DNA from: a virus
Lineage: Duplodnaviria; Heunggongvirae; Uroviricota; Caudoviricetes
IMG/VR virus record: IMGVR_UViG_2879742664_000002
DNA: 13,683 nt
Reading direction: 5' to 3' (one strand)
The notes below the pieces were generated by a model. It had not been told where the DNA came from and ran no database searches. It saw only the letters and a program-made list of their open reading frames with translations. Within the stretch, counting starts at the first letter, position 1; the number at the start of each line of letters is the position of its first letter. The position numbers were made by a program, and so were the translations under genes. Below, in pieces: positions 1 through 13,683 of this stretch.

Positions 1-1107
1 TTAAACCCATTCCTGACCTCGAGTATCGTTATAGCGATCGGTGGTTGCCTGGACTTTATGTCCTAGTAATGTTTTTGTATCGATACCCTGTGCACGGTAC
101 AGCCGTTCTGATAGAGAGCGTTGTTCATGAAATGTTGGCGGAGTTTTTCCTGCTGGTGGAATTATCCCAGCCAGATCCCGTGCTTTGGCAAAGTAGTCGC
201 TCAGGTTGTCTTTACTCATCGGCTTCGGTTGTTTCTGGTGCCGACTATGGATTAGATATGGACTTAATATTCTGTCTCGGCACCCATCAATAACTTCTTT
301 TAACGTTATCCCAATGGCATCACAGCGTAGTGTAAGCGGTAACGCCAGACGCATTCCGGTTTTTCCCTGGGTGATATGCAAGTGTTCGTTCCACGCATCT
401 GAAAAACGCATGTGGCAAATGTCATCACGGCGCTGACCAGTAACAATCGCAAGAAGCATTGCGTTACGGATAAAGTGTTTTTCAGGCGTTGCATTGTAAA
501 TTTTTTGCCAGTCTTCCATGGTGAGCCTGGCTCTGGTTACTTTAGGGATCGGTTTACGGGTAGCCTCCGGAGGATTCCATCCAGGAGGAACTTCCCCTGC
601 ATGCTGTGCTTCTTTATAAATATCAACCCATAATCCACGATTTACTCTCGCTGTGCTGACCATGTCTTTATCCAGCCACTCATCCAGTATTAATGCAAAG
701 TCTCTTACTTCCAGTTCTTTCAATGGGTGGTTTCCCAGACGGGAAACCAGGTATGCAGCCATTCGAGTTTTTTCTTTGTGAGTTGTAGCTGCAATATCTC
801 CATTTTTCAGTCGCGTGTCCTGTATTTTCAGATATCGATCAACCCATGCCTTTAATCTGATACCCCGACGTTTTGTTGCTGACGGACTTTCATCAATTTT
901 GCGCATGAAATATTCAGCTTCTGCTGCAGCTATTCGCTGATTGGCTGTGGAAGCGATTTTTTCTGCCTTACCTTTGTCTGTTCCGAGTCCGTGAAATTTT
1001 CCAGTCACAGGATTTTTATACTGGTAGTAAACTCTGCCAGTTCTGCGATCAAACTTTTCGTAAAGACCGGCTACGTCAGTGCTGTTTTTTCGTGGCCTCG
1101 GTGACAT
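1..1107 (-). CDS. int: Phage tyrosine integrase (lambdoid Int family)
   Basis: 368-aa minus-strand ORF; stop codon is bases 1-3, ATG at 1105-1107 with AAGGAG-type RBS just upstream (plus-strand ctcctt 1118-1123). C-terminal tyrosine-recombinase signature visible in translation (TGQRRDD, HEQRSLSERLY, LLGH, terminal Y in TDRY). Confidence 0.9.
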   Translation of the reverse strand: MSPRPRKNSTDVAGLYEKFDRRTGRVYYQYKNPVTGKFHGLGTDKGKAEKIASTANQRIAAAEAEYFMRKIDESPSATKRRGIRLKAWVDRYLKIQDTRLKNGDIAATTHKEKTRMAAYLVSRLGNHPLKELEVRDFALILDEWLDKDMVSTARVNRGLWVDIYKEAQHAGEVPPGWNPPEATRKPIPKVTRARLTMEDWQKIYNATPEKHFIRNAMLLAIVTGQRRDDICHMRFSDAWNEHLHITQGKTGMRLALPLTLRCDAIGITLKEVIDGCRDRILSPYLIHSRHQKQPKPMSKDNLSDYFAKARDLAGIIPPAGKTPPTFHEQRSLSERLYRAQGIDTKTLLGHKVQATTDRYNDTRGQEWV

Positions 1108-1311
1108 GAGTTAAAATCTCCTTCAGTGCATCATCATCGCCAGTATGAATTTCCGGCGCAATTCCCGTTTCACCTGGCCCAACAAATACTGCTCGGCGAT
1201 CTATCAGCCAACGCCCACGAATTTTTTGTGGTCTTGGAACGATGTATCCTAGTTTTCCGTATTTCACCAGGGTAGTGAGACTGAACCGTTTTGGTTTCCA
1301 CTCGTCGAGCG
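1076..1311 (-). pseudogene. xis: Excisionase (Xis-like) lacking its 5' end and start codon; truncated by IS1
   Basis: Phage-derived part of ORF 1076..1486 (LDEWKPKRFSLTTLVKYGKLGYIVPRPQKIRGRWLIDRRAV...) resembles lambda Xis as recalled (N-terminal ...LTLQEW... then a basic winged-helix region). Overlaps int start by 32 bp as xis-int pairs typically do. Reading frame upstream of 1311 is IS1 sequence. Confidence 0.55.
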
Positions 1312-1366
1312 GGTAATGCTGCCAACTTACTGATTTAGTGTATGATGGTGATTTTAAGGTGCTTGC

Positions 1367-1642
1367 GTGGCTTCCATTTCCATCAGATGTCCTTCCTGCT
1401 CCGCTACTGAAGGCGTGGTGCGTAACGGCAAAAGCACTGCCGGACATCAGCGCTATCTCTGCTCTCATTGCCGTAAAACATGGCAACTACAGTTCACTTA
1501 CACCGCCTCTCAGCCCGGTACGCACCAGAAAATCATTGATATGGCCATGAATGGCGTCGGATGTCGCGCCAGTGCACGCATTATGGGCGTTGGCCTCAAC
1601 ACGGTTTTACGTCACTTAAAAAACTCAGGCCGCAGTCGGTAA
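1367..1642 (+). CDS. insA: IS1 InsA (transposition inhibitor / N-terminal part of InsAB' transposase)
   Basis: 91-aa ORF starting at GTG 1367; translation [43 protein letters not shown]... matches the IS1 InsA zinc-finger/HTH protein as recalled. Confidence 0.9.
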
Positions 1643-1668
1643 CCTCGCGCATATAACCGGGCAGTGAT

Positions 1669-2064
1669 GTGATTGTCTGCGCTGAAATGGACGAACAGTG
1701 GGGCTACGTCGGTGCTAAATCACGTCAGCGCTGGCTGTTTTACGCGTATGACAGGATACGGAGGACGGTTGTGGCGCACGTCTTCGGTGAACGCACTCTG
1801 GCCACACTGGAGCGTCTTCTGAGCCTGCTGTCGGCCTTTGAGGTCGTGGTATGGATGACGGATGGCTGGCCGCTGTATGAATCACGCCTGAAGGGAAAGC
1901 TGCACGTTATCAGCAAGCGTTACACTCAGCGCATTGAGCGACATAATCTGAATCTGAGACAACATCTGGCAAGGCTGGGACGGAAGTCACTGTCGTTCTC
2001 AAAATCGGTGGAGCTGCATGACAAGGTCATCGGGCATTATCTGAACATAAAACACTATCAGTAA
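1669..2064 (+). CDS. insB: IS1 InsB frame (expressed as InsAB' fusion by -1 frameshift)
   Basis: 131-aa ORF ([28 protein letters not shown]...[15 protein letters not shown]) matching IS1 InsB as recalled. Frame is open upstream of 1669 and overlaps the insA end, consistent with programmed frameshifting at the A6C motif. Confidence 0.85.
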
Positions 2065-2079
2065 GTTGGAGTCATTACC

Positions 2080-3097
2080 CGCCGACTGCCTGGAATTTAT
2101 CTGGTCGTTACCCGAAAATTCTGTTGACCTGATAGTCACGGACCCGCCGTACTTTAAAGTGAAGCCTGAGGGCTGGGATAACCAGTGGAAGGGCGACGAT
2201 GATTACCTGAAGTGGCTGGAGCAGTGTCTGGCGCAGTTCTGGCGGGTGCTGAAACCTGCCGGAAGTCTTTACCTGTTCTGTGGTCATCGCCTGGCATCTG
2301 ATATCGAAATCATGATGCGTGAACGCTTCAGTGTGCTGAACCATATTATCTGAGCGAAGCCGTCCGGACGCTGGAACGGATGCAACAAGGAAAGCCTGCG
2401 GGCGTATTTCCCCGCCACAGAGCGCATTCTGTTCGCGGAACATTATCAGGGGCCGTACCGCCCGAAAGATGATGGCTATGAGGCGAAGGGCAGTGCACTG
2501 AAACAGCATGTGATGGCCCCGCTGATTTCTTACTTTCGTGATGCGCGAGCTGCCCTGGGGATAACGGCAAAACAGATTGCAGATGCCACAGGAAAGAAAA
2601 ACATGGTGTCGCACTGGTTCAGTGCCAGTCAGTGGCAGTTGCCGAATGAAAGCGATTATCTGAAATTACAGGCGCTGTTTGCCCGGGTGGCAGAAGAGAA
2701 GCATCGGCGTGGTGAACTGGAAAAGCTCCACCACCAGCTGGTGGATACGTATACCTCACTGAACCGGCAGTATGCGGAGCTGCTGAGTGAATATAAACAT
2801 CTGCGGCGGTATTTTGGCGTGACGGTGCAGGTGCCGTATACCGATGTGTGGACGCATAAACCGGTGCAGTTCTATCCCGGGAAACATCCGTGCGAAAAAC
2901 CGGCAGAAATGCTGCAGCAGATAATCAGCGCTAGCAGTCGTCCGGGTGACCTGATTGCAGATTTTTTCATGGGGTCGGGTTCGACAGTGAAAGCGGCACT
3001 GGCGCTCGGGCGTCGTGCAATTGGCGTTGAGCTGGAGACTGAACGTTTTGAGCAGACGGTTCGGGAAGTACAGGATTTAGTCAGCCAGAACGGATGA
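2080..3097 (+). pseudogene. Beta-class DNA methyltransferase (DPPY type, probably N6-adenine), N-terminally truncated by IS1 and interrupted by in-frame TGA at 2351-2353
   Basis: A single frame carries motif IV (LIVTDPPY), an HPCEKP motif, and motif I (DFFMGSGST) near the C-terminus, with stop at 3095-3097. The only interruption is TGA 2351-2353 in the sequence NHII*AKPSGRWNG. No native start codon downstream of the IS1 end; first in-frame start (TTG 2066) lies inside IS1. Confidence 0.7.
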
Positions 3098-3137
3098 TAT
3101 TGAAGAATTAATTACGCGTCGTTATTATGCGGCTCCC

Positions 3138-3213
3138 GGCCCTTTAGCTCAGTGGTGAGAGCGAGCGACTCATAATCGCCAGGTCGCTGGTTCAAATCCA
3201 GCAAGGGCCACCA
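3138..3213 (+). tRNA. ileZ: tRNA with CAT anticodon, ileX/ileY-like (tRNA-Ile2, lysidine-type; tRNAscan would call it Met)
   Basis: Hand-folded cloverleaf: acceptor ggccctt/aagggcc, D arm gctc-agtggtga-gagc, anticodon stem agcga/tcgcc with loop ctCATaa, T arm gctgg-ttcaaat-ccagc, discriminator A, encoded CCA. Gene symbol follows the prophage tRNA trio of Stx phages as recalled. Confidence 0.85.
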
Positions 3214-3220
3214 TCACATA

Positions 3221-3297
3221 CCGCCATTAGCTCATCAGGAAAGAGCGCCAGCCTTCGAAGCTGGCTGCGCGGGGTTCAAGTCCCCGATGGCGGTCCA
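3221..3297 (+). tRNA. argN: tRNA-Arg, anticodon read as TCG
   Basis: Hand-folded cloverleaf: acceptor ccgccat/atggcgg, D arm gctc-atcaggaaa-gagc, anticodon stem ccagc/gctgg with loop ctTCGaa, T arm cgggg-ttcaagt-ccccg, encoded CCA. Anticodon and symbol assignment are from manual folding and memory, not a tRNA-finder run. Confidence 0.75.
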
Positions 3298-3310
3298 TTA
3301 TCTGCATCAT

Positions 3311-3387
3311 GCGTTGTTAGCTCAGCCGGACAGAGCAATTGCCTTCTAAGCAATCGGTCACTGGTTCGAATCCAGTACAACGCGCCA
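3311..3387 (+). tRNA. argO: tRNA-Arg, anticodon TCT (reads AGA)
   Basis: Hand-folded cloverleaf: acceptor gcgttgt/acaacgc, D arm gctc-agccggaca-gagc, anticodon stem attgc/gcaat with loop ctTCTaa, T arm actgg-ttcgaat-ccagt, discriminator G, encoded CCA. Confidence 0.8.
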
Positions 3388-3401
3388 CACTTATTTTCCC
3401 T

Positions 3402-3427
3402 GGCTCGCTTTTGCGGGCTTTTTTTTT
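3402..3427 (+). terminator. Rho-independent terminator after the tRNA cluster
   Basis: Stem gctcgc (3403-3408) / gcgggc (3413-3418) with one G-U pair, tttt loop, followed by a run of 9 T (3419-3427). Confidence 0.55.
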
Positions 3428-3623
3428 AAATGTCTCACAATTCAGACGGTTGACTGTTGTCTGGTTTGCGGGGAGTTTGTTAAAAGAAACTGGCATGGTG
3501 AATCCCCCTGTGCGGAGGGGCAATCAGCGAGTAGGTATATGGGATAATCGCGGATTCAGGTGCTGGTACTGAATTCACCGGGAGGCACCCGGCACCATGC
3601 AATGGCACATAGCGCCACTCTCC

Positions 3624-3650
3624 AGCCCCTCTCCGGAGGGGCTTTCTTGT
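3624..3650 (+). terminator. GC-rich hairpin with T-rich tail (candidate plus-strand terminator)
   Basis: 8-bp stem agcccctc (3624-3631) / gaggggct (3636-3643), loop tccg, then ttcttgt. Confidence 0.4.
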
Positions 3651-3653
3651 GGG

Positions 3654-3683
3654 CAAAAAAAGCCCGCGCTGGGAGACGCGGGC
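3654..3683 (-). terminator. Candidate minus-strand rho-independent terminator
   Basis: Stem gcccgcg (3662-3668) / cgcgggc (3677-3683) with 8-nt loop, preceded on the plus strand by an A7 run, i.e. hairpin followed by T7 when read on the minus strand. Confidence 0.4.
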
Positions 3684-3876
3684 GGCAAGGAATAAACAAT
3701 AAAACGTGAAGTAATATTTCAGCTGGCGAATAATACCCCATAGTAGTCACTCTGCGCAACTGCGCGGTCTTTTTCGAATTGCGGGCTGTCGTCTCTCTTC
3801 TGCCATTGTCCTGTAACTTCCGGACTTCAGCCCGCTCCTCATTTTACTCACAATATTATCCCGGCCGGGAGGATTC

Positions 3877-4956
3877 ATGGCTTTTAAACACTATGATGTT
3901 GTCAGGGCGGCGTCGCCGTCAGATCTTGCGGAAAAGCTGACACATAAACTGAAAGAGGGCTGGCAGCCGTTTGGTAGTCCGGTGGCCATAACCCCTTATA
4001 CTCTGATGCAGGCGATTGCAGCAGAAGGTGCAGTAATCAGCGCCACCAGCGACCCGGAGTATTACTTTGTTGTGGTTCTGGCAGGGCAGTCAAACGGCAT
4101 GTCGTATGGTGAAGGCCTTCCGCTGCCGGGGACATATGACCGTCCGGACCCGCGTATTAAGCAACTGGCGCGTCGCAGTACGGTGACACCGGGCGGTGCA
4201 GCATGCAAATATAACGACATCATTCTGGCGGACCATTGTCTGCATGATGTGCAGGACATGAGCCGTCTTAACCATCCGAAAGCGGACCTGTCAAAGGGGC
4301 AGTACGGAACCGTGGGGCAGGGGCTGCATATCGCCAAAAAACTGCTGCCGTTTATACCGGCGAATGCGGGCATTCTGCTGGTTCCGTGCTGTCGTGGTGG
4401 TTCAGCGTTCACCACCGGAGCTGATGGCACATACAGTGACGCGAGTGGTGCCTCGGAGAATTCAACCCGCTGGGGTGTGGACAAGCCGCTGTATAAGGAC
4501 CTTATCGGTCGAACAAAAGCGGCACTGGAGAAGAACCCGAAAAATGTGCTGTTTGCCGTGGTGTGGATGCAGGGGGAATTTGATTTTGGCGGTACGCCGG
4601 CAAATCATGCCGCACAGTTTGGTGCGCTGGTTGATAAATTCCGTGCAGACCTGGCGGATATGGCAGGCCAGTGCGTCGGTGGCTCTGCTGGCGGTGTTCC
4701 CTGGATATGCGGGGACACGACGTATTTCTGGAAGCAGAAGAACGAATCCACGTACCAGACGGTGTACGGCAGCTATAAAAATAAAACGGAAAAGAATATC
4801 CATTTCGTACCGTTCATGACCGATGAGAACGGGGTGAATGTGCCGACGAACAAACCGGAAGAAGACCCGGACATTCGGGGTATCGGTTATTACGGTTCGA
4901 AATGGCGTGACAGCTCAGCCACCTGGACGTCACAGGACAGGGCGAGCCATTTCTAG
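3877..4956 (+). CDS. Prophage NanS-p-like sialate O-acetylesterase (N-terminal DUF1737-like region plus SGNH/SASA esterase domain), probably C-terminally truncated
   Basis: ATG 3877 with GGGAGGA RBS (3866-3872). Translation begins MAFKHYDVVRAASPSDLAEKL... and contains the esterase motif VVVLAGQSNGMSYGEG. ORF ends at TAG 4954-4956, exactly where IS66-like sequence begins; relatives are recalled as roughly 600 aa or more. Confidence 0.7.
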   Translation: MAFKHYDVVRAASPSDLAEKLTHKLKEGWQPFGSPVAITPYTLMQAIAAEGAVISATSDPEYYFVVVLAGQSNGMSYGEGLPLPGTYDRPDPRIKQLARRSTVTPGGAACKYNDIILADHCLHDVQDMSRLNHPKADLSKGQYGTVGQGLHIAKKLLPFIPANAGILLVPCCRGGSAFTTGADGTYSDASGASENSTRWGVDKPLYKDLIGRTKAALEKNPKNVLFAVVWMQGEFDFGGTPANHAAQFGALVDKFRADLADMAGQCVGGSAGGVPWICGDTTYFWKQKNESTYQTVYGSYKNKTEKNIHFVPFMTDENGVNVPTNKPEEDPDIRGIGYYGSKWRDSSATWTSQDRASHF

Positions 4957-5291
4957 ACTGGCCCCCTGAATCTCCAGACAACCAGTATCACTTAAATAAG
5001 TGATAGTCTTAATACTAGTTTTTAGACTAGTCATTGGAGTACAGATGATTGATGTCTTAGGGCCGGAGAAACGCAGACGGCGTACCACACAGGAAAAGAT
5101 CGCAATTGTTCAGCAGAGCTTTGAACCGGGGATGACGGTCTCCCTCGTTGCCCGGCAACATGGTGTAGCAGCCAGCCAGTTATTTCTCTGGCGTAAGCAA
5201 TACCAGGAAGGAAGTCTTACTGCTGTGGCCGCCGGAGAACAGGTTGTTCCTGCCTCTGAACTTGCTGCCGCCATGAAGCAGATTAAAGAAC
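4957..5291 (+). mobile_element. IS66-family left-end fragment (leader plus 5' part of orf1), cut by IS629
   Basis: Contains an orf1 (HTH_Tnp_1-type, ISEc8-like as recalled) preceded by an 88-bp leader with palindromes. Right boundary is the IS629 left terminus at 5292. Left boundary is approximate; no GTAAGCG-type terminus seen at this end. Confidence 0.5.
5045..5291 (+). pseudogene. IS66-family orf1/TnpA (helix-turn-helix accessory protein), 3'-truncated by IS629
   Basis: ATG 5045 with GGAG RBS. Translation [58 protein letters not shown]...MKQIKEL runs into the IS629 terminus after about 82 codons; the tail NRPGNPGD of the ORF is IS629-encoded. Confidence 0.6.
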
Positions 5292-5345
5292 TGAACCGCC
5301 CCGGGAATCCTGGAGACTAAACTCCCTGAGAAAGAGGTAAACAGG

Positions 5346-5672
5346 ATGACTAAAAATACTCGTTTTTCCCCCGAAGTCCGTCAGAGGGCGATTCGTATGG
5401 TTCTGGAAAGTCAGGGCGAATATGACTCACAGTGGGCGGCAATTTGTTCCATTGCCCCAAAGATTGGCTGTATACCGGAGACTCTGCGTGTCTGGGTACG
5501 CCAGCATGAGCGGGATACCGGAGGCGGTGATGGCGGGCTCACCACCGCTGAACGTCAGCGTCTGAAAGAGCTGGAACGTGAAAATCGTGAACTGCGCCGC
5601 AGTAACGATATCCTTCGCCAGGCTTCCGCTTATTTTGCGAAGGCGGAGTTCGACCGCCTCTGGAAAAAGTGA
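5346..5672 (+). CDS. IS629 OrfA (HTH DNA-binding part of the transposase)
   Basis: 108-aa [45 protein letters not shown]... with leucine-zipper-like C-terminus, typical IS3-family OrfA. Confidence 0.9.
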
Positions 5673-6559
5673 TGCCACTGCTGGATAAGCTGCGTAAGCT
5701 GTACGGGGTCGGACCGGTATGCAGTGAACTACATATTGCCCCGTCAACGTATTACCACTGTCAGCAACAGCGACATCATCCTGATAAACGCAGTGCCCGT
5801 GCGCAGCGCGATGACTGGCTGAAGAAAGAGATACTGCGCGTATACGATGGGAATCATCAGGTATACGGTGTGCGTAAAGTCTGGCGTCAGTTGTTACGGG
5901 AAGGTATCAGAGTGGCCAGATGCACTGTGGCACGTCTCATGGCGGTTATGGGACTTGCCGGTGTTCTCCGGGGTAAAAAGGTCCGTACGACCATCAGCCG
6001 GAAAGCCGTTGCCGCAGGCGACCGCGTAAACCGTCAGTTCGTGGCAGAACGACCTGACCAGCTGTGGGTGGCTGATTTTACTTACGTCAGCACATGGCAG
6101 GGCTTCGTCTATGTGGCGTTCATTATTGATGTGTTTGCCGGATACATCGTGGGGTGGCGGGTCTCATCGTCCATGGAAACGACATTCGTGCTGGATGCTC
6201 TGGAGCAGGCGTTATGGGCCCGTCGACCGTCCGGCACGGTCCATCACAGTGATAAAGGTTCTCAGTATGTATCGCTGGCCTACACACAGCGGCTTAAGGA
6301 AGCCGGATTACTGGCATCAACAGGAAGTACAGGCGACTCGTATGACAACGCGATGGCGGAGAGCATCAATGGTCTTTACAAAGCGGAGGTAATACACCGT
6401 AAGAGCTGGAAAAACCGTGCAGAAGTGGAACTGGCCACACTCACGTGGGTGGACTGGTATAATAATCGACGATTGCTGGAAAGGCTGGGCCACATCCCTC
6501 CGGCAGAAGCAGAAAAAGCTTATTATGCTTCCATCGGAAACGATGATCTGGCAGCCTGA
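5669..6559 (+). CDS. IS629 OrfB (DDE catalytic domain; expressed as OrfAB by -1 frameshift)
   Basis: 296-aa ORF overlapping the orfA end in the -1 frame; DDE-type integrase-fold hallmarks ([24 protein letters not shown]). Confidence 0.9.
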
Positions 6560-6602
6560 GTTCACAGATAAAACACTCTCCAGGAAACCCGGGGCGGTTC
6601 AG

Positions 6603-6953
6603 GGTGAGGGTGGTGAAGGCCATCTGAGTTCTTTCTTTGTCCAGACAGATAAAGCCAGTATTAATGTTGCATACCATCATACAGTTAATCAACAAAAAGA
6701 ACTTGGCACGTTTGGCGCATTCGACCATGACTGGCATACGCTTGCATTTAAATTTAAGGGCAGTAACAGCATTAATGTTACTCCGGTGCTTGATGGTGTG
6801 GATGGACAGGCGTTTGACCTGGTGAAATGGGCCAATACTGCTAATGGACTCAACAGGTTTGTCATTACGGATATTACAGGTAGTGCAGAAACCTACCCTG
6901 TACTTATTGATACGGTGGAAGTTAAAGCAAACAAAGCTGGAGCAGCCGCATAA
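6603..6953 (+). pseudogene. Start-less C-terminal ORF fragment (116 codons) resuming at the IS629 right end; possibly the displaced 3' part of the nanS-p-like gene
   Basis: Reading frame is open from the first base after IS629 to TAA 6951-6953 (GEGGEGHLSSFFVQTDKASINVAYHH...VEVKANKAGAAA); no start codon outside the IS. Assignment to nanS-p is inference only. Confidence 0.4.
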
Positions 6954-6958
6954 TTGCT

Positions 6959-6995
6959 AAAAAAAGCCGCCAGCGGCAGGAATGGAAGCTGGCGG
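6959..6995 (-). terminator. Hairpin with flanking A/T run (minus-strand-oriented intrinsic terminator or bidirectional stop)
   Basis: 8-bp stem ccgccagc (6967-6974) / gctggcgg (6988-6995), 13-nt loop, A7 run at 6959-6965 on the plus strand (T7 after the hairpin on the minus strand). Confidence 0.35.
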
Positions 6996-7092
6996 AGGTA
7001 ATCCCAATGGAGAATGTAAAGAAAAGATGCTTTCGTACATTGGTTTTTTAAATGAAAACAATTCTCATTGTCAACCATAACGGTAAGAAATT

Positions 7093-7275
7093 ATGACATT
7101 TATTCATCAGGTGATGCTGTACTTCTGTACGGCGGTCTGTGTGCTGTATCTTCTTTCGGGTGGGTACAGGGCTGTGCGCGATTTCTGGTGCAGGCAGATT
7201 GATAAAAGGGCCGCTGAGAAAATCAGCGCCAGTCAGTCAGCCGGAAGCAAACCCGAAGAACCCGTTACTCCTTAA
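7093..7275 (+). CDS. Hypothetical small protein with hydrophobic N-terminus (60 aa)
   Basis: ATG 7093, weak RBS; translation MTFIHQVMLYFCTAVCVLYLLSGG... then a charged tail. Competes with an overlapping alternative frame (7139..7546); weakly supported. Confidence 0.3.
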   Translation: MTFIHQVMLYFCTAVCVLYLLSGGYRAVRDFWCRQIDKRAAEKISASQSAGSKPEEPVTP

Positions 7276-7300
7276 CAACCCCTTTCAGCGAGAAAATCCC

Positions 7301-7546
7301 ATGTCAGAAATCACATCCCTGGTCACTGCAGAGGCAGTGAAGGAAGTCCTGCGCTCTGAAGAAGTCCGGAGCGCACTGAAACAGAAACTTCGCCAGAATC
7401 TTGAGTCGCGTCTTGATGCAGAAGTGGATGCCATTCTGGATGAGCTGCTGGGCGTAGCAGCGGTTCCTGAGCCGGAAGGTATCGCGGGTGACGGGAGTGC
7501 TTCAGATGGCGGTGAACCTACACCTGACAGCGACATGATGATGTAA
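7301..7546 (+). CDS. Hypothetical acidic protein (81 aa)
   Basis: ATG 7301 after a purine-rich stretch (gagaaaa); helical-looking, strongly acidic C-terminus (...[26 protein letters not shown]). Lies immediately upstream of the holin. Confidence 0.45.
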
Positions 7547-7622
7547 GCATGCGCAAGGGACCATCGGTGTGTGCCGGTGGTCTTTATATTGTTGTGAGCT
7601 TCCGGATTGCGGGAGACGGGGT

Positions 7623-7838
7623 ATGTACCAGATGGAAAAAATCACAACAGGTGTGTCATACACCACGTCAGCGGTGGGAACGGGCTACTGGTTCCTGCAG
7701 TTGCTGGACAGGTTTTCCCCGTCTCAGTGGGCGGCAATAGGCGTGCTGGGGAGTCTGTTGTTTGGGCTGCTGACATATCTGACTAACCTGTATTTCAAAA
7801 TCAGAGAGGACCGTCGTAAGGCGGCGCGGGGAGAGTAA
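7623..7838 (+). CDS. S: Holin, phage 21 S-like (pinholin type)
   Basis: 71-aa [74 protein letters not shown] with two hydrophobic segments and a basic C-terminus. RBS GGGAGACGGGG; two in-frame ATGs (7623, 7632). Confidence 0.8.
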
Positions 7839-7842
7839 AGCG

Positions 7843-8187
7843 ATGAAGAAAAAATACGAACTGGTTGTTAAAGGGATAAATAATTACCCGAATAAGATTA
7901 CTGTTACTGTGGCACTGGAAATTGGTGGGTATCCGTCACTGTTGTTGCCAGATGTGGCGATTAGTCTTGACCGTACTGAAGATGCCACGCTGGAGTTTTA
8001 CGAAGCTGAGGCGAAAAAGCAGGCGAAGCAGTTTTTCATGGATGTTGCTGCCGGGTTATGTGAAGGGGATGGTCCGTTGCCGGAAAAGCGCCCCGTAATT
8101 TTAGAGGCGCAGGATGTGTTGATAACCTACAGAGGAAAACTACCGGGAATAATTACTGGTTCTCTGAAGACTCCACCGCTGGCCTGA
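7843..8187 (+). CDS. Hypothetical soluble protein (114 aa) between holin and endolysin
   Basis: ATG 7843 only 5 bp after the holin stop with GGAGAG RBS; no hydrophobic segment; no family recognised by eye. Confidence 0.5.
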   Translation: MKKKYELVVKGINNYPNKITVTVALEIGGYPSLLLPDVAISLDRTEDATLEFYEAEAKKQAKQFFMDVAAGLCEGDGPLPEKRPVILEAQDVLITYRGKLPGIITGSLKTPPLA

Positions 8188-8237
8188 AGACTTAACATAT
8201 CCAGGGATTTGAAATCGATAAACCCTGATAAATATCC

Positions 8238-8771
8238 ATGAACACCAAAATCAAATACGGCCTGTCGGCTGCCGTTCTGGCGCTGATTGCCGCAGGTGCG
8301 CCTGCGCCTGAAATCCTCGACCAGTTTCTGGATGAAAAGGAAGGTAACCACACCACGGCATACCGTGATGGCGCGGGTATCTGGACCATCTGCCGCGGTG
8401 CCATCCTGGTGGATAGTAAACCTGTCGTCCCGGGCATGAAGTTGTCGAAGGAAAAATGCGACCAGGTCAACGCCATTGAGCGTGATAAGGCGCTGGCATG
8501 GGTGGAGCGCAATATTAAAGTGCCGCTGACCGAACCCCAGAAAGCGGGTATCGCGTCATTTTGTCCCTATAACATTGGCCCCGGTAAGTGTTTCCCGTCG
8601 ACGTTTTACAGACGGATTAATGCTGGTGACCGCAGGGGAGCATGCGAAGCGATTCGCTGGTGGATTAAGGACGGTGGCAGAGACTGCCGTATCCGCTCAA
8701 ATAATTGCTACGGTCAGGTATCCCGGCGAGACCAGGAAAGTGCGCTGGCGTGCTGGGACATCGACAGATAA
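8238..8771 (+). CDS. R: SAR endolysin (T4-lysozyme-like GH24 muramidase with N-terminal signal-anchor-release segment)
   Basis: 177-aa ORF; N-terminal Gly/Ala-rich weakly hydrophobic segment (GLSAAVLALIAAGAPAP) followed by the catalytic E...D...T signature (EGNHTTAYRDGAGIWTICRG). Confidence 0.85.
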   Translation: MNTKIKYGLSAAVLALIAAGAPAPEILDQFLDEKEGNHTTAYRDGAGIWTICRGAILVDSKPVVPGMKLSKEKCDQVNAIERDKALAWVERNIKVPLTEPQKAGIASFCPYNIGPGKCFPSTFYRRINAGDRRGACEAIRWWIKDGGRDCRIRSNNCYGQVSRRDQESALACWDIDR

Positions 8772-8861
8772 GCAGAATATTTTGCTGAAAATAAGGCATG
8801 AGCACGCGGACGGATAACACGAAATCCTGCGAACTGGCGAAACGTAAGTGAATAAAAGTAA

Positions 8862-8900
8862 AAACCCCGTTTGTTGGCACCAGGCGGGGTTTTGTGTTTC
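8862..8900 (+). terminator. Intrinsic terminator/attenuator-like hairpin between R and the downstream small ORFs
   Basis: Stem aaaccccg (8862-8869) / cggggttt (8885-8892), extendable with G-U pairs to about 13 bp, followed by tttgtgtttc. Confidence 0.5.
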
Positions 8901-8926
8901 TGACCTTGAGTAAGGCAAGGGAGAAC

Positions 8927-9109
8927 ATGGCGAAGTATAAACGAATTCTGTTGAGGTTGACCATGAAAAACGGCCTTGAACTGAAAGCGCCTGTAACTGA
9001 TGACATCAGCAGAGCACTGGCTTTTGCCATTAAGTGGGTGGCGGTCGGTGTTGCTGTGTCCCCGATGCTGTATGGGCTGGCAAAACTGGTCATTGCGTTG
9101 AAATCGTGA
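8927..9109 (+). CDS. Hypothetical small membrane protein (60 aa)
   Basis: ATG 8927 with AAGGGAG upstream; basic N-terminal half (MAKYKRILLRLTMKNG...) and one C-terminal hydrophobic helix (WVAVGVAVSPMLYGLAKLVIAL). Confidence 0.4.
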   Translation: MAKYKRILLRLTMKNGLELKAPVTDDISRALAFAIKWVAVGVAVSPMLYGLAKLVIALKS

Positions 9110-9123
9110 AGGGAGGATTAAGC

Positions 9124-9255
9124 ATGTCAGACAAACTCATAACGCTGGCGAAGATCCTCTGTGTAATTGTCGGCATTTCATTTTCACTAATGCTGGTTGC
9201 TCTTTTTCTTTCCATGGCCTGGATGATGTTGTCTTCGTCGGGGCTGCTGGGGTGA
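9124..9255 (+). CDS. Hypothetical small hydrophobic protein (43 aa), translationally coupled to Rz
   Basis: ATG 9124 with strong GGGAGGA RBS at 6-nt spacing; almost entirely hydrophobic (ITLAKILCVIVGISFSLMLVALFLSMAWMML); stop TGA 9253-9255 overlaps the Rz GTG start (9252-9254). Confidence 0.45.
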   Translation: MSDKLITLAKILCVIVGISFSLMLVALFLSMAWMMLSSSGLLG

Positions 9256-9650
9256 ACATAAACCGAATGCTTTCCGCGTTTACCGTTATTCTGCTGGTGG
9301 TCTGTGGTGCGCTGTGGCTGGCAACAGACCATTACCGTGATAACGCCATCACCTACAAAGCGCAGCGCGATAAAAAAGCCAGAGAGCTGGAGCTGGCAAA
9401 CGCAACCATTACTGACATGCAGCAGCGCCAGCGTGATGTTGCCGCTGGTCGTAAGCGCCTGCGGATCAACGCCACCTGCTCCGGTACCGTGCGTGAAGCC
9501 ACCGGCACCTCCGGAATGGATAATGCAACCGGCCCCCGACTGGCAGACACCGCTGAACGGGATTATTTCACCCTCAGAGAGCGGTTGATGACAATGCAGA
9601 AGCAACTGGAAGGGGCGCAGGAATATATCCGCACTCAGTGTATTAACTAG
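9252..9650 (+). CDS. Rz: Rz inner-membrane spanin (i-spanin)
   Basis: 132-aa ORF (start GTG 9252 or ATG 9267) with N-terminal TM helix then HYRDNAITYKAQRDK...RLADTAERDYFTLRERLMTMQKQLEGAQEYI, closely resembling lambda Rz as recalled. Confidence 0.85.
   Translation: MNINRMLSAFTVILLVVCGALWLATDHYRDNAITYKAQRDKKARELELANATITDMQQRQRDVAAGRKRLRINATCSGTVREATGTSGMDNATGPRLADTAERDYFTLRERLMTMQKQLEGAQEYIRTQCIN
9436..9588 (+). CDS. Rz1: Rz1 outer-membrane lipoprotein spanin (o-spanin), embedded in the +1 frame of Rz
   Basis: ATG 9436 inside Rz; MLPLVVSACGSTPPAPVPCVKPPAPPEWIMQPAPDWQTPLNGIISPSESG has a lipobox (VSAC) and proline-rich body like lambda Rz1. Confidence 0.8.
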   Translation: MLPLVVSACGSTPPAPVPCVKPPAPPEWIMQPAPDWQTPLNGIISPSESG

Positions 9651-10222: not shown

Positions 10223-10236
10223 TATCTGTGCCGGGA

Positions 10237-10569
10237 ATGAAAATGAAAAGAAACCTTCCGTTAATTATTTTGTTGTCTTCTCTGGTTATGGGCTGTACGC
10301 AACATAAAACAGATATGCCCCGACAGTTGGTTAAGGCATTACCACAATATCCGGCCTATGCAGCGGCAAATTATATAAAGGGACGGGTTGATGTGAAGTT
10401 TGATATTGGTGCTGATGGTACTGTCACCCGAATTGAGTTTATCCGTTCAGAGCCGCACCATTTGTTTGATGAGCAGGTTGTAAAGGCGATGGCAAAATGG
10501 CGATTTGAGAAGGACAGGCCGTGTAAAGGCGTGAAGAAAACGTTTATCTTTAGTCCTTCTGCACCCTGA
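10237..10569 (+). CDS. Lipoprotein with TonB C-terminal domain (TonB_C-like), prophage accessory gene
   Basis: Signal peptide with lipobox (MKMKRNLPLIILLSSLVMGC, Thr at +2). Mature region PQYPAYAAANYIKGRVDVKFDIGADGTVTRIEFIRSEPHHLFDEQVVKAMAKWRFE aligns by eye with E. coli TonB C-terminal domain ([34 protein letters not shown]...FEREVKNAMRRWRYE). Start could be ATG 10237 or 10243. Confidence 0.75.
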   Translation: MKMKRNLPLIILLSSLVMGCTQHKTDMPRQLVKALPQYPAYAAANYIKGRVDVKFDIGADGTVTRIEFIRSEPHHLFDEQVVKAMAKWRFEKDRPCKGVKKTFIFSPSAP

Positions 10570-10986: not shown

Positions 10987-12415
10987 GTAAGCGTCAACGG
11001 AGCACCGTATTGACGCTTATTTATTGGTGAGTGCTACGTTCCATGGCAGGAGTTCGTCAACACGGTTGGAAGGCCATTCCGGCAGTACGCTCAGGATATA
11101 GCGCAGATACGCTTCCGGATCGATACCGTTCAGTCGGCAGGTGCCGATCAGCCCGTACAGTAGCGCACCACGCTCTCCACCGTGATCGCTGCCGAAGAAC
11201 ATAAAGTTTTTCTTTCCGAGACAGACTGCACGAAGCGCTCTTTCCGCGGCATTATTATCCGCCTCAGCCAGACCATCATCACTGAAGTTGCACAACGCAA
11301 CCCAGTGCTTCCTGATATACCGGAACGCATCTCTCAGACGGCATTTTTTCGATAACGTGTGTTCTTTCTCCTGCATCAGCTTATACAGGGAAGTCAGTAG
11401 CGGTTTACTCTGCATTTGCCTGACCGCCAGGCGTTCAGACACCGGCAACCCGCGTATTTCGTGCTCGATGGCGTACAGCTCACCGATTAGTTTCAGGGCT
11501 TCTTCCGCTGTCGCGCTTTTGGTACTGATATATACATCGTGGACTTTGCGCCGCGCATGAGCCCAGCATCCTGCTTCCGTCAACGCGCCGCCTTCTCGTT
11601 CGGCACTGAACAGCCGATCGTAACCATTAAACGCATCTGCCTGCAGGATACCCCGGAAGGGACTAAGGTGCTGCTCCGGATGTTTACCCTGATGGTCCGG
11701 TGAGTAGGCGAACCAGACCGCCGGAGGCTCTGGCGAACCGGCATTCCTGTCATCCCGGACATACGTCCAGATATATCCTGTTTTCGCCTTCTTCCTGCCC
11801 GGTGCCAGCACTTTTACTGGTGTGTCATCAGTGTGAACTTTGCGGCTGTTCATTACATAACGGTACAGAGCATCATTCAGCGGCGTCATTAACTGGCAGC
11901 ACGCGTCAACCCAGTTGGAGAGTAATGCACGGCTCAGTTCGACACCCTGACGGGCAAAAATTTCACTCTGACGATACAGTGGCAGGTGTTCGCAGTATTT
12001 TCCCGTTAACACGCGGGCAAGTAACCCCGGGCCCGCGATACCACGCTCTATCGGACGGGATGGTGCCGGTGCTTCAACGATGCAGTCACATTTTGTACAG
12101 GCTTTTTTTACCCGTTCTGTGCGGATCACTTTCAGAGCGCTGCTCACCAGTTCCAGTTGTTCTGCGCTGACTTCCCCCAGATAATCCAGCTCACCGCCAC
12201 ACTCCGGGCAACAGCTTTCTTCTGGCTCCAGGCGATTTATTTCGCGGGGCAGATGCTCCGGTAACGGGCGACGATGACGAGACTGTCGCAACTGGCGGGG
12301 AACCTGCGGATCGTCTTCCCGCCCACTGTAACGATCACTGTCCTGTTCGCGTTGTTTCAGCAGGGCCTCAGCCTGTTCAACTTCACGACGCAGTTTTTCA
12401 GAACGGGTACCGAAC
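10987..12415 (-). mobile_element. IS66-family element, right-end portion (terminal repeat plus tnpC), truncated by IS629
   Basis: GTAAGCG terminal motif at 10987-10993 (typical IS66 terminus as recalled); tnpC-type ORF on the minus strand; abuts the IS629 left terminus at 12416. Confidence 0.7.
11017..12415 (-). pseudogene. IS66-family transposase TnpC (DDE_Tnp_IS66 type), 5'-truncated by IS629
   Basis: Frame open from the IS629 junction with no ATG (FGTRSEKLRREVEQAEALLKQ... then CCPECGGEL zinc-ribbon motif, LPLYRQSEIFARQGVELSRALL, DDTPVKV, C-terminal LLPWNV); stop at 11017-11019. About the first 50 codons are missing. Confidence 0.8.
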
Positions 12416-12469
12416 TGAACCGCCCCGGGAATCCTGGAGACTAAACTCCCTGAGAAAGAGGTAAACAGG

Positions 12470-12796
12470 ATGACTAAAAATACTCGTTTTTCCCCCGAAG
12501 TCCGTCAGAGGGCGATTCGTATGGTTCTGGAAAGTCAGGGCGAATATGACTCACAGTGGGCGGCAATTTGTTCCATTGCCCCAAAGATTGGCTGTACACC
12601 GGAGACTCTGCGTGTCTGGGTACGCCAGCATGAGCGGGATACCGGAGGCGGTGATGGCGGGCTCACCACCGCTGAACGTCAGCGTCTGAAAGAGCTGGAA
12701 CGTGAAAATCGTGAACTGCGCCGCAGTAACGATATCCTTCGCCAGGCTTCCGCTTATTTTGCGAAGGCGGAGTTCGACCGCCTCTGGAAAAAGTGA
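12470..12796 (+). CDS. IS629 OrfA (copy 2)
   Basis: 108-aa ORF identical to copy 1 except Ile to Thr at residue 43 ([12 protein letters not shown]). Confidence 0.9.
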
Positions 12797-13683
12797 TGCC
12801 ACTGCTGGATAAGCTGCGTAAGCTGTACGGGGTCGGACCGGTATGCAGTGAACTACATATTGCCCCGTCAACGTATTACCACTGTCAGCAACAGCGACAT
12901 CATCCTGATAAACGCAGTGCCCGTGCGCAGCGCGATGACTGGCTGAAGAAAGAGATACTGCGCGTATACGATGGGAATCATCAGGTATACGGTGTGCGTA
13001 AAGTCTGGCGTCAGTTGTTACGGGAAGGTATCAGAGTGGCCAGATGCACTGTGGCACGTCTCATGGCGGTTATGGGACTTGCCGGTGTTCTCCGGGGTAA
13101 AAAGGTCCGTACGACCATCAGCCGGAAAGCCGTTGCCGCAGGCGACCGCGTAAACCGTCAGTTCGTGGCAGAACGACCTGACCAGCTGTGGGTGGCTGAT
13201 TTTACTTACGTCAGCACATGGCAGGGCTTCGTCTATGTGGCGTTCATTATTGATGTGTTTGCCGGATACATCGTGGGGTGGCGGGTCTCATCGTCCATGG
13301 AAACGACATTCGTGCTGGATGCTCTGGAGCAGGCGTTATGGGCCCGTCGACCGTCCGGCACGGTCCATCACAGTGATAAAGGTTCTCAGTATGTATCGCT
13401 GGCCTACACACAGCGGCTTAAGGAAGCCGGATTACTGGCATCAACAGGAAGTACAGGCGACTCGTATGACAACGCGATGGCGGAGAGCATCAATGGTCTT
13501 TACAAAGCGGAGGTAATACACCGTAAGAGCTGGAAAAACCGTGCAGAAGTGGAACTGGCCACGCTCACGTGGGTGGACTGGTATAATAATCGACGATTGC
13601 TGGAAAGGCTGGGCCACATCCCTCCGGCAGAAGCAGAAAAAGCTTATTATGCTTCCATCGGAAACGATGATCTGGCAGCCTGA
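12793..13683 (+). CDS. IS629 OrfB (copy 2; expressed as OrfAB by frameshift)
   Basis: 296-aa ORF matching copy 1 at the protein level; stop codon is the last three bases of the window. Confidence 0.9.

Follow-up and report, generated by a model that had tools for sequence, protein, structure and literature searches.

A tRNA trio, two known small RNAs and an empty cargo junction in an IS-eroded, toxin-free lambdoid prophage remnant of Shigella flexneri serotype 6

Stx phages carry the tRNA genes ileZ-argN-argO between the antiterminator gene Q and stx. The DNA analyzed here (13,683 nt, referred to in full as the window) presents three tRNA genes in the corresponding position with neither Q before them nor stx after them, which raises the question of whether such a locus is a relative of the Stx phages that is free of the toxin by descent or a former Stx phage that has lost it, and what the module may still do. 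We conclude, with a probability of about 90%, that the locus represents the "moron slot" module from the late region of an ordinary lambdoid prophage without toxin, preserved in an IS-eroded remnant beside potC in S. flexneri serotype 6.

The window was 100% identical to the chromosome of S. flexneri serotype 6 strain 64-5500 (CP026811.1; PMC9455713; PMC4206707), and the serotype 6 genomes spanning the locus (L003-L006) were 99.96-100% identical to it, while no complete E. coli genome covered at least 80% of its length. The flanking genes are ordered lolCDE-nagK-cobB-potD-potC-int in both CP026811.1 and CP055124.1, with approximately 180 bp between the integrase gene and potC in the source chromosome. 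Adjacent to the integrase gene, the small reading frame in the excisionase position had no Pfam match, and its upstream reading frame enters an IS1 element; at the other side, the DNA beyond the lysis genes has been replaced by IS629-like and IS66 elements. The window is an IS-eroded remnant of an ordinary toxin-free lambda-like prophage adjoining potC (Table 1). It does not hold a complete, inducible prophage genome such as that of a Stx-converting phage, because the early region has been lost at IS1, both the methylase and the esterase gene are pseudogenes, and IS elements have been inserted.

Table 1. Features of the prophage remnant, in window coordinates
Feature	Position	Strand	Basis or remark
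Lambda-type tyrosine integrase, 368 aa	1..1107	-	Pfam Arm-DNA-bind_1 and Phage_integrase; left end of remnant
Small ORF in excisionase position, 64 aa as called in source genomes	1076..1270	-	Position
Complete IS1, 768 bp, inverted ends GGTAATG...CATTACC	1312..2079	+	Sequence read; DDE_Tnp_IS1 match
N6/N4 DNA methylase pseudogene	2080..3097	+	Pfam N6_N4_Mtase on both halves
Predicted sigma-70 promoter-like site, TTGAAG, 17 nt, TATTAT	3100..3128	+	Ends 9 nt before ileZ
ileZ, tRNA-Ile2 type, anticodon CAT	3138..3213	+	ARAGORN; Rfam tRNA model
argN, tRNA-Arg, anticodon TCG, CCA encoded	3221..3297	+	ARAGORN; Rfam tRNA model
argO, tRNA-Arg, anticodon TCT (AGA/AGG), CCA encoded	3311..3387	+	ARAGORN; Rfam tRNA model
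Intrinsic terminator-like hairpin and T9, directly after argO	3402..3428	+	Conserved in stx-less and Stx2 loci
Empty "moron" junction	3428..3431	.	Alignment to Stx2 phages; about 2 nt in window
STnc100-family sRNA gene, equivalent of Sakai Sp4 EcOnc05	3464..3654	+	Rfam RF02076
Convergent RNA, equivalent of Sakai Sp4 EcOnc08/EcOnc21; 5' end inferred	3655..3926	-	Terminator, Hfq peaks, probe
Third plus-strand terminator-like hairpin, upstream of esterase	3752..3775	+	Conserved in 6/6 aligned loci
NanS-p-like sialate O-acetylesterase, N-terminal 359 aa only	3877..4956	+	Pfam DUF1737 and SASA
IS fragment interrupting esterase	4954-5287		
IS629/IS1203-like element interrupting esterase	5288-6601		
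DUF6645 C-terminal fragment of esterase	6417-6953		Beyond IS elements

ARAGORN found exactly three tRNAs in the window, all on the plus strand, and the Rfam tRNA model recovered them independently with 72.5, 58.0, and 70.1 bits (gathering score 29; E 1e-10 to 1e-14), which is no lower than the scores of the reference Stx phage copies. The genes follow one another in the order Ile(CAT), Arg(TCG), Arg(TCT), with spacers of 7 and 13 nt, so the tightly spaced trio and the anticodons read in the first-pass annotation, which had allowed that tRNA finders might reject the folds or assign other anticodons, were recovered unchanged. The trio was 96.8-100% identical to ileZ1/argN1/argO1 of Sakai prophage Sp4 and to the trio of E. 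coli 55989, with ileZ invariant across six aligned loci and argN identical to the 55989 copy. Order, spacing and identity to named copies all establish it as the ileZ-argN-argO cluster of lambdoid and Stx-type phages, as had been proposed; the spacer and esterase gene lie downstream as in the lambdoid cluster, whereas the upstream Q/pR' region is absent from the window and present in E. coli 55989 and in the gut metagenome contig L007. The label "tRNA-Met" that ARAGORN attached to the CAT tRNA is an artefact of naming: the identical or near-identical gene is recorded as tRNA-Ile (ileZ) by PGAP and in the entries for E. coli 55989, Sakai (ileZ1), and Nil3. With its isoleucine identity taken from annotation, ileZ would read AUA after lysidine modification. 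A preprint on Pas sRNAs takes tRNA matches near these RNAs as integration hot spots, which would make the trio host genes used as a phage attachment site. This is so improbable here that it can be set aside, given that the trio lies inside the prophage, approximately 2 kb from the integrase gene and between methylase and esterase, that sequenced phage genomes (L001, L012, and Nil3) have it at the corresponding internal site, and that the chromosomal border of the remnant is at potC.

The reported lack of Q upstream of the trio was borne out: tblastn with five antiterminators of three types gave only chance matches in the window (the best at E 0.04), and a blastn search for the Q-to-methylase interval, which contains pR'/tR', returned nothing, so that the Q and pR'/tR' that precede the tRNAs of a Stx-converting phage are missing here. 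The IS1 junction accounts for this lack. Q is missing because a complete IS1 joins the int/xis end straight to a 5'-truncated, nonsense-mutated methylase gene, the methylase remnant already recognized before the trio. Protein alignment with intact homologues showed that about 13 N-terminal codons of the methylase were lost and replaced by the IS1 end at 2079/2080, and revealed an in-frame TGG to TGA change at 2351-2353. The 9-mers flanking IS1 differ (CGTCGAGCG and CGCCGACTG) and there is therefore no target duplication; homology to intact relatives begins exactly at 2080, directly after IS1. In those relatives (E. coli 55989 and L007) a 273-aa antiterminator occupies that place. IS1 marks the site of a deletion or rearrangement by which the early region, Q, and pR' were lost, and the missing Q is a result of this IS1-associated event in this Shigella lineage rather than a trait of the phage type.

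The prophage of E. coli 55989 and contig L007 are the best models of the undamaged progenitor. Both are ordered antiterminator (273 aa), 65-aa ORF, methylase, tRNA trio, spacer, and esterase, without stx, and neither has lost the PF03589-type antiterminator or the pR' region, which IS1 removed in the window. L007 was 97.7% identical to the window over 2080-5027 and encodes an identical truncated esterase; for the 55989 prophage, identities were 95% for the methylase, 100% for the trio, and 99.5% for STnc100, with a different esterase allele (69%).

Downstream of the trio, the absence of stx was confirmed over the whole window, where both blastn (word 7) with the 1332-bp stx2 cassette and tblastn with Stx2A/B yielded chance matches only (E > 0.5); the stxA and stxB genes of a Stx-converting phage are accordingly lacking. 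Window positions 2080-3428 align to positions 3001-4350 of the phage genome L001 and 3431-4953 to its positions 5683-7282, the Stx2 phages holding at the junction 1332 bp that comprise the stx2 promoter, stx2A, and stx2B. It had been suggested that alignment to stx flanks might reveal residual promoter or gene fragments in the spacer; none were found, and no stx fragment or scar remains at the junction. The junction sequence, TTTTTTAAATGTCTCACAATTCAG, is identical in the alignment of four stx-less loci and likewise in Sakai Sp4, and the empty junction occurs in the O157 Sakai prophage Sp4, E. coli 55989, phage Nil3, and L007. Among 5426 complete E. coli genomes it was present in 1023, vs. 592 with a stx2-occupied junction.

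The gap between argO and the esterase gene is 489 bp long (3388-3876) and hairpin-rich, with six terminator-like sites in 2950-3950 vs. 1.1 ± 1.2 in shuffles. The earlier description of about 490 bp of hairpin-rich DNA therefore stands as to length and hairpins, though not as to its being plainly non-coding: the spacer is the site of two published, convergent sRNAs, EcOnc05 (of the STnc100 family) and EcOnc08/21, which PMC4104026 describes at the moron site. STnc100 is a relative of PasD, and the match to it was full length (model positions 1-206, 139.4 bits vs. a gathering score of 47, E 2.5e-31), the gene has its own terminator at 3624-3650, the Sp4 EcOnc05 copy is 99.5% identical over the STnc100 stretch, and the EcOnc05 Northern probe is perfectly complementary to window 3522-3556. 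EcOnc05 of Sp4 was reported with a Northern band of approximately 222 nt and with Hfq crosslinks (Table S2, PMC4104026), and because of that length the 5' end of the window's RNA is probably near 3430-3435.

The terminator of the minus-strand RNA, at 3683-3655 (GCCCGCGTCTCCCAGCGCGGGC followed by T7), abuts the STnc100 match, lying 1 nt past its end. The published size of about 271 nt places the start of this EcOnc08/21-type RNA near 3926, and with such a start it would be antisense to the ribosome-binding site and start codon of the esterase gene. Published Hfq peaks map to window 3657-3729 and 3735-3820, and the EcOnc08/21/42 probe corresponds to the plus strand at 3729-3763, with six mismatches in the window and none in Sp4. 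The coordinates in Table S2 run approximately 135 nt below those of NC_002695.2 at Sp5, which makes mapping of Hfq peaks by coordinates alone unsafe; at Sp4, as judged from the probe sequences, the offset is zero. We rejected a model of a ~90-nt minus-strand sRNA starting from a TATTAT -10 site at about 3731-3736, because the EcOnc08/21/42 probe covers that stretch and the published band is about 271 nt; an OmrA-B match (25 bits vs. a gathering score of 40) was likewise rejected as terminator-level resemblance. Although the geometry of AsxR, AgvB, and EcOnc03, that is a minus-strand RNA convergent with an abutting plus-strand STnc100-type sRNA at the moron site, is reproduced, no Rfam match to AsxR or AgvB appeared in 3050-3950 even at E <= 1, and the minus-strand slot lacks the ~42-nt 3' module of these 51-60-nt RNAs (GTATCTCATGC..TTGCCCGAACCCA.TCGGGC), with only a loose resemblance to their published sequences, judged by eye, in the terminator. 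In the same geometry the occupant of the slot corresponds to EcOnc08/21 in the window and to AsxR in a 933W-like phage (L012). The folding energies of the two RNAs were not significantly below those of shuffles (z -1.8 and -1.3), and both RNAs are unannotated in current genome records, where the position shows either nothing or a spurious hypothetical protein.

The NanS-p-like esterase placed after the spacer by the first-pass annotation was upheld, with DUF1737 and SASA domains and DNA 96.7% identical to that of the esterase following stx2B in the Stx2a phage 12E129. The reading frame nevertheless spans only 359 aa and covers positions 5-158 of the 226-position SASA profile. Its homology to L001 yjhS does not extend past 4953, and the architecture of a full NanS-p (DUF1737, complete SASA, and DUF6645 in one protein of ~620-650 aa) is broken up by the IS elements.

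Three further systems place the module in context. Sakai Sp4 shares with the window the order and orientation, the empty junction, the 489-nt gap, and the lack of stx, with a spacer about 97% and a trio 96.8% identical. It differs in being a near-complete prophage near yccX/tusE rather than an IS-eroded remnant at potC, in the unrelated DNA upstream of ileZ, and in its esterase homologue ECs_1088, an allele only 73% identical. Phage Nil3 (AM051322, from E. coli O157:H7), whose record is a partial 6.3-kb fragment, has Q, tR', ileZ-argN-argO, and the same spacer without stx, and aligns ungapped to window 2987-3830 at 94.9% identity; it has a 933W-type Q, separated from the nearby tRNAs by no more than the 3' end of the methylase gene. 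Stx2-converting phages (12E129/ASU11; 933W/Sp5) have the trio, the slot, an STnc100-family sRNA, a convergent minus-strand RNA, and a NanS-p esterase, the trio lying between antiterminator and cargo slot and the lysis genes after the esterase. They share flanks with the window at up to 95-99% identity, yet their STnc100 allele is another one and their slot contains the 1332-bp stx2 cassette where the window is without stx, and 933W/Sp5 has AsxR in the minus-strand slot where the window has no AsxR/AgvB-type RNA. The first-pass annotation had named, as a finding that would tell against its view, a spacer normal in non-Stx phages and without homology to stx flanks; the spacer is indeed normal in non-Stx prophages, yet it is homologous to stx flanks.

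The description of the backbone as Stx-phage-like and toxin-free is sound, and of the two origins offered for it the evidence leans clearly toward a stx-negative relative. The other origin would make the locus a former 12E129/ASU11-type Stx2 phage from which the stx2 promoter-stx2AB cassette was precisely deleted before or during decay in Shigella. The flanks are close to those of Stx2a phages such as 12E129 (methylase 94.8%, tRNA trio 95.2%, the minus-strand RNA region at 3655-3750 99%, and the esterase as given above), the difference amounts to one clean block, and the Pas-sRNA preprint mentions recurrent loss of stx among the possible explanations for loci of this kind. We nonetheless consider such a deletion quite improbable: the window has no stx scar, the junction is shared letter for letter with Sp4, 55989, Nil3, and L007, and the empty state is commoner than the stx2-occupied one. 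Moreover, the STnc100 gene to the right of the junction was 99.5-100% identical to the alleles of toxin-free loci but shared no more than ~70% identity with the allele found alongside stx2, a mismatch that a simple deletion would not produce and that therefore favors a toxin-free lineage over recent toxin loss. In the phage collection, the only full-length STnc100 match above 95% was the stx-less Nil3; a rough linkage check with mixed identity bands placed the Stx2-type allele in 794 genomes vs. stx2 in 592. A precise but ancient stx loss, with the empty allele then spreading by recombination, is conceivable on the sequence, because lambdoid prophages are highly mosaic, and the esterase allele of the window is of the Stx2-phage type (96.7%) rather than the Sp4 or 55989 type (69-73%). 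Taken together, these comparisons suggest that in this lineage the slot very probably never held stx.

In order, the module comprises a promoter-like site, ileZ-argN-argO, a terminator, the empty moron junction, a plus-strand STnc100-family sRNA, a minus-strand EcOnc08/21-type RNA, a terminator, and the esterase. In an intact phage, Q lets RNA polymerase from pR' pass the terminators of the module, and late in infection this readthrough yields the tRNAs, whatever cargo the slot contains (stx in the case of Stx phages), the esterase, and the lysis genes. The trio would decode AUA, AGA/AGG, and CGA/CGG, codons that are far commoner in phage and cargo genes than in host core genes. In a comparison of the window's own genes, neighboring core genes, and stx2AB, these rare codons numbered 14.2 per 1000 in core genes, 47.4 in the window's prophage genes, and 68.6 in stx2AB, so that with these small codon samples the cognate codons were used ~3.3-fold more in prophage than in neighboring core genes, and rare-codon supplementation by the trio is plausible. 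A literature search on ileZ/argN/argO found nothing in the library covered.

The fusion of int/xis to the truncated methylase by IS1 removed immunity, replication, Q, and pR', and further IS elements broke the esterase. Activity can persist only where a unit has signals of its own, as do the tRNA operon and the two small RNAs. The site upstream of ileZ is predicted to act as an autonomous promoter for this operon; it is not significant by itself, since one site was found and 1.0 was expected by chance, and its hexamers are kept in six relatives. Both small RNAs were experimentally detected in the near-identical Sakai Sp4 locus. The tRNAs and sRNAs are probably still expressed in Shigella. A possible but doubtful alternative holds that the module is a silent relic, its genes looking intact as the remnant is young, with no useful transcription or host benefit once Q and pR' were gone. 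The statistical weakness of the promoter prediction is in keeping with this, as are the visible decay of argN in at least one relative (L007) and the near-identity of L003-L006 to the window, owing to which there is no within-lineage signal of selection. Against it, Sakai Sp4 has TTGATT-17-TATTAT at the same distance from ileZ, so that the -10-like TATTAT is maintained despite otherwise unrelated upstream DNA, a dedicated terminator follows argO, and the tRNA scores are level with those of reference phages. In addition, the homologous sRNAs of Sp4, an uninduced prophage, are abundant enough for Hfq crosslinking and Northern detection, and STnc100 copies are expressed in EDL933. Going further, the tRNA operon and the two small RNAs might constitute a domesticated island under selection in S. 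flexneri serotype 6 while the prophage decays, an idea that we regard as unlikely. If it were true, tRNAs from their own promoter would raise AUA, AGA/AGG, and CGA decoding for AT-rich, horizontally acquired virulence genes, and the EcOnc05/EcOnc08-type RNAs would have become part of the host's Hfq networks.

The arrangement itself, with tRNAs, two known small RNAs, an esterase, and no toxin, is ordinary, already known, and common in E. coli, and the importance of the locus reaches little beyond correct annotation. A very common toxin-free lambdoid module can be mistaken for an unusual "Stx phage without its toxin." Annotation of the CAT tRNA should read tRNA-Ile (ileZ) and not tRNA-Met, the gap should carry an STnc100/EcOnc05-type sRNA and a convergent EcOnc08/21-type RNA, and the lack of Q is an artefact of IS1 in a decaying Shigella genome. 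The supply of rare-codon decoders by phage tRNAs is already a standard idea for Stx phages; if the tRNAs described here are expressed, they would be one more case of prophage remnants providing such decoders.

The first-pass annotation had placed three tightly spaced tRNA genes with anticodons CAT, TCG and TCT in this locus, and two tRNA finders agreed on their coordinates, anticodons and spacing: ARAGORN and, independently, the Rfam tRNA covariance model (gathering score 29), in which the bit scores equaled or exceeded those of the counterparts in reference Stx phages. By gene order, strand and spacing the locus likewise belongs among tRNA clusters of the ileZ-argN-argO type. ARAGORN labels the CAT gene tRNA-Met, an artefact of naming: its homologues, identical in E. 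coli 55989 and near-identical in O157 Sakai (ileZ1) and phage Nil3, are all annotated as tRNA-Ile. Across its 250 nt the trio showed no differences from that of E. coli 55989, and ileZ was invariant across the six aligned loci. The variable member is argN (4144-4220 in Stx2a phage 12E129, ~9346-9422 in the gut-metagenome contig L007). Its anticodon in 12E129 is TCT, not TCG, so that both Arg tRNAs there would read AGA/AGG, and in L007 substitutions disrupt T-stem and acceptor-stem pairs.

Features of the prophage locus, mapped by Pfam scans and direct reading of the sequence, with nucleotide identity to Stx2a phage 12E129 and to toxin-free loci
Feature	Position	Strand	Basis	Identity, 12E129	Identity, toxin-free loci
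Lambda-type integrase	1-1107	-	Pfam/sequence reading		
ORF at excisionase position	1076-1270	-	Pfam/sequence reading		
IS1, complete, 768 bp	1312-2079	+	Pfam/sequence reading		
DNA methylase pseudogene	2080-3097	+	Pfam/sequence reading	94.8%	95% (L007, 55989)
tRNA trio	3138-3387	+	ARAGORN, Rfam	95.2%	96.8-100% (L007, 55989, Sp4, Nil3)
ileZ, anticodon CAT	3138-3213	+	ARAGORN; Rfam, 72.5 bits		
argN, anticodon TCG	3221-3297	+	ARAGORN; Rfam, 58.0 bits		
argO, anticodon TCT	3311-3387	+	ARAGORN; Rfam, 70.1 bits		
Gap, 489 bp	3388-3876		Between argO and esterase		
STnc100 sRNA, full-length	3464-3654	+	Rfam, 139 bits (gathering score 47)	~70%	99.5-100%
Minus-strand RNA (EcOnc08/21 equivalent), terminator at its end	3683-3655	-	Terminator search	99% (3655-3750)	94-100% (3655-3750)
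Esterase (DUF1737 + SASA), truncated at codon 359	3877-4956	+	Pfam	96.7% (3877-4953)	100% (L007), 69-73% (55989, Sp4) (3877-4953)
IS fragment	4954-5287	+			
IS629/IS1203-like element	5288-6601	+			
Esterase C-terminal fragment (DUF6645)	6417-6953	+	Pfam		
DUF826, holin, DUF1327, lysozyme, Rz	about 7100-9650	+	Pfam		
IS66 transposase	11017-12291	-			
Second IS629-like copy	12412-13683	+			

The absence of stx downstream, also claimed earlier, was borne out, with no stx-derived DNA or peptide similarity anywhere in the window. In the alignment to the stx-flanking regions of 12E129 the flanks match and stx fragments are lacking: window 2080-3428 is 94% identical to phage positions 3001-4350 and window 3431-4953 is 86% identical to 5683-7282; between these blocks the phage has a further 1332 bp, with stx2A and stx2B and their promoter region. 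In the window, TCACAATTCAG, the motif found 3' of stx2B in Stx2 phages, comes almost directly after the T-run of the terminator behind argO, and the junction letters are identical in all toxin-free loci aligned. Of 5426 complete E. coli genomes, 1023 gave a contiguous match to a 221-nt query spanning this empty junction, among them 55989 and strains of O55:H7 and O111; the equivalent stx2-occupied junction occurs in 592.

The description of the gap as hairpin-rich non-coding DNA proved right as to hairpins, with six terminator-like sites in 2950-3950 (1.1 +/- 1.2 expected). The DNA is not anonymous, however: it contains a full-length STnc100 small RNA gene, which scores well above the gathering threshold of that family. 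In EHEC, strain EDL933 has 11 STnc100 copies, of which Northern blotting confirmed one, and an STnc100 copy also lies 75 nt 3' of stx2B; PasD, which is related to STnc100, lies directly upstream of the prophage esterase. Convergent sRNA pairs were described at the "moron" insertion site 3' of pR', where Stx2 phages hold stx2 (Tree et al., 2014; PMC4104026), both after stx2B in Sakai Sp5 and in Sp3, 4, 9, 10, 11, 15 and 17, of which Sp15 is an Stx1 prophage and the others are toxin-free. For Sp4 the tabulated RNAs are EcOnc05 (plus strand, ~222 nt) and EcOnc08/EcOnc21 (minus strand, ~271 nt) (PMC4104026). Coordinates in Table S2 of that paper match NC_002695.2 at Sp4 and run ~135 nt below it at Sp5 (1268628-1268681), so published peaks are best placed by probe sequence. 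The EcOnc05 probe is complementary to window 3522-3556 without mismatch. The EcOnc08/21/42 probe has the sequence of the Sp4 plus strand (1180010-1180044; window counterpart 3729-3763, 6 mismatches), and the RNA it detects is therefore minus-strand. From the ~271 nt size we infer a 5' end near 3926, which would make this RNA antisense to the ribosome-binding site and start codon of the esterase.

A size of ~222 nt would place the 5' end of EcOnc05 at about the empty junction (3428-3435), directly behind the T-run of the argO terminator. No sequence there makes a convincing sigma-70 promoter, and EcOnc05 might instead be processed from tRNA operon read-through, or from stx mRNA in Stx phages. 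The slot of a 933W-like phage is occupied by AsxR, and no AsxR/AgvB-type RNA was found in the window. None of the 979 complete E. coli genomes that carry the window's slot variant has it annotated; though about a fifth of complete E. coli genomes carry it, RefSeq leaves the STnc100/EcOnc05 and EcOnc08/21 genes blank or covers them with a spurious partial "hypothetical protein" (e.g., 6184-6309 of the 55989 locus).

The earlier proposal had left open whether the locus is an stx-negative relative of Stx phages or a toxin-loss derivative, and it is the STnc100 allele that favors the former. Had stx simply been deleted from a Stx2-type phage, the Stx2-type allele would have stayed; this recent loss would account for flanks so close to those of 12E129 (Table), but the window gene shares only ~70% identity with the 12E129 allele and is of the toxin-free type. 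In the phage collection only Nil3, which lacks stx, matches the window allele over its full length at more than 95%; named Stx phages have just the 3' part in common with it. In a rough linkage check, the Stx2-type allele matched 794 genomes in mixed identity bands, against 592 for stx2. Taken together, these comparisons favor a slot that would be a long-standing toxin-free allele rather than the product of recent toxin loss, a reading qualified by phage mosaicism. STnc100 alleles are themselves mosaic: the 5' stem and the 3' part are conserved, while the center varies and may be the target-recognition region (compared with 5716-5930 in 12E129 and 4034-4239 in the 933W-like phage).

No Q lies upstream of the trio, as the first-pass annotation had it: searches of the window for three antiterminator types and for the Q-to-methylase interval left no trace. 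Homology to intact relatives begins at base 2080, directly after IS1, and the methylase has lost ~13 N-terminal codons at this border and carries a TGG-to-TGA change at 2351-2353. The 9-mers on the two sides of IS1 differ, hence there is no target duplication; unlike flanks of this kind would be expected after an IS1-mediated deletion or after two IS1 copies had recombined. E. coli 55989 has the order DUF968, RusA, a 273-aa antitermination protein, a 65-aa ORF, methylase, tRNA-Ile, tRNA-Arg, tRNA-Arg, spacer, esterase and holin, and L007 (97.7% identity over window 2080-5027) has the same upstream genes. The missing Q thus goes back to an IS1 event local to this Shigella lineage and is not a trait of the phage type.

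At coverage of at least 80% the window was found in no complete E. coli genome. It is 100% identical to CP026811.1, from Shigella flexneri serotype 6 strain 64-5500, where the integrase follows lolCDE-nagK-cobB-potD-potC. The IS-truncated esterase is encoded on several NCBI chromosomes, the other records being from serotype 6 strains FDAARGOS_714, CCH060 and CDC 796-83 (PMC9455713, PMC4206707). The locus is a heavily eroded prophage remnant. An ALIL frameshift pseudoknot is present in both of its IS629/IS1203-like (IS3-family) copies, which share 99.85% identity. The first lies in the older IS fragment that truncates the esterase, and the second breaks an IS66-family element. An additional inverted copy in the DUF1327 gene of serotype 6 record JWSL02000004.1 (14165-15474, ~ window 8035-8040) indicates that IS activity in the remnant is ongoing and differs between strains. 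The lysis cassette (7623-9650) retains open reading frames despite the deletion of Q and pR', and is presumably silent behind several terminators. Downstream of Rz, a small TonB_C-domain ORF (10228-10569, 108-113 aa) is kept across serotype 6 genomes.

All parts of the locus and its whole arrangement were already known. The toxin-free, lambda-like Sakai prophage Sp4 has, like the window, ileZ1, argN1, argO1, a 489-nt gap (about 97% identical) and an esterase homologue (ECs_1088); Nil3 (O157:H7) carries the trio and window-type spacer without stx, together with tR' and the Q that the window lacks. The trio in these prophages and 55989, the moron slot, the convergent STnc100/EcOnc05 and EcOnc08/21 pair, the NanS-p-type esterase and IS-driven decay of Shigella prophages had all been described. 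Lacking stx, Q and a complete genome, the window does not qualify as a Stx-converting phage.

Q-modified RNA polymerase that starts at pR' of an intact phage would pass the plus-strand terminators at 3402-3428, 3624-3650 and 3752-3775, and this read-through would yield the tRNAs, any slot cargo, the esterase and the lysis genes; late read-through is established lambdoid regulation (restated in PMC4104026). With pR' and Q gone from the remnant, activity can come only from units that are self-contained. Ending 9 nt 5' of ileZ is a promoter-like site (TTGAAG, 17 nt, TATTAT; 3100-3128) whose hexamers are kept in six relatives, and a terminator lies directly 3' of argO. Sp4 has TTGATT-17-TATTAT at equal distance from ileZ, the -10-like hexamer standing 9-10 nt 5' of the gene in both (window 3123-3128, Sp4 locus about 1404-1409); its persistence despite otherwise unrelated upstream DNA suggests that the tRNA module carries this promoter element with it. 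The tRNAs and sRNAs are more likely than not still expressed (roughly 60%). The codons AUA, AGA, AGG, CGA and CGG together number 47 per 1000 in window prophage genes and 69 in stx2AB against 14 in neighboring core genes (small samples), and the trio fits codons favored by phage genes. That the tRNA-sRNA island has been selectively retained in Shigella, serving rare-codon-rich acquired genes, is unlikely; if true, it would be of modest interest.
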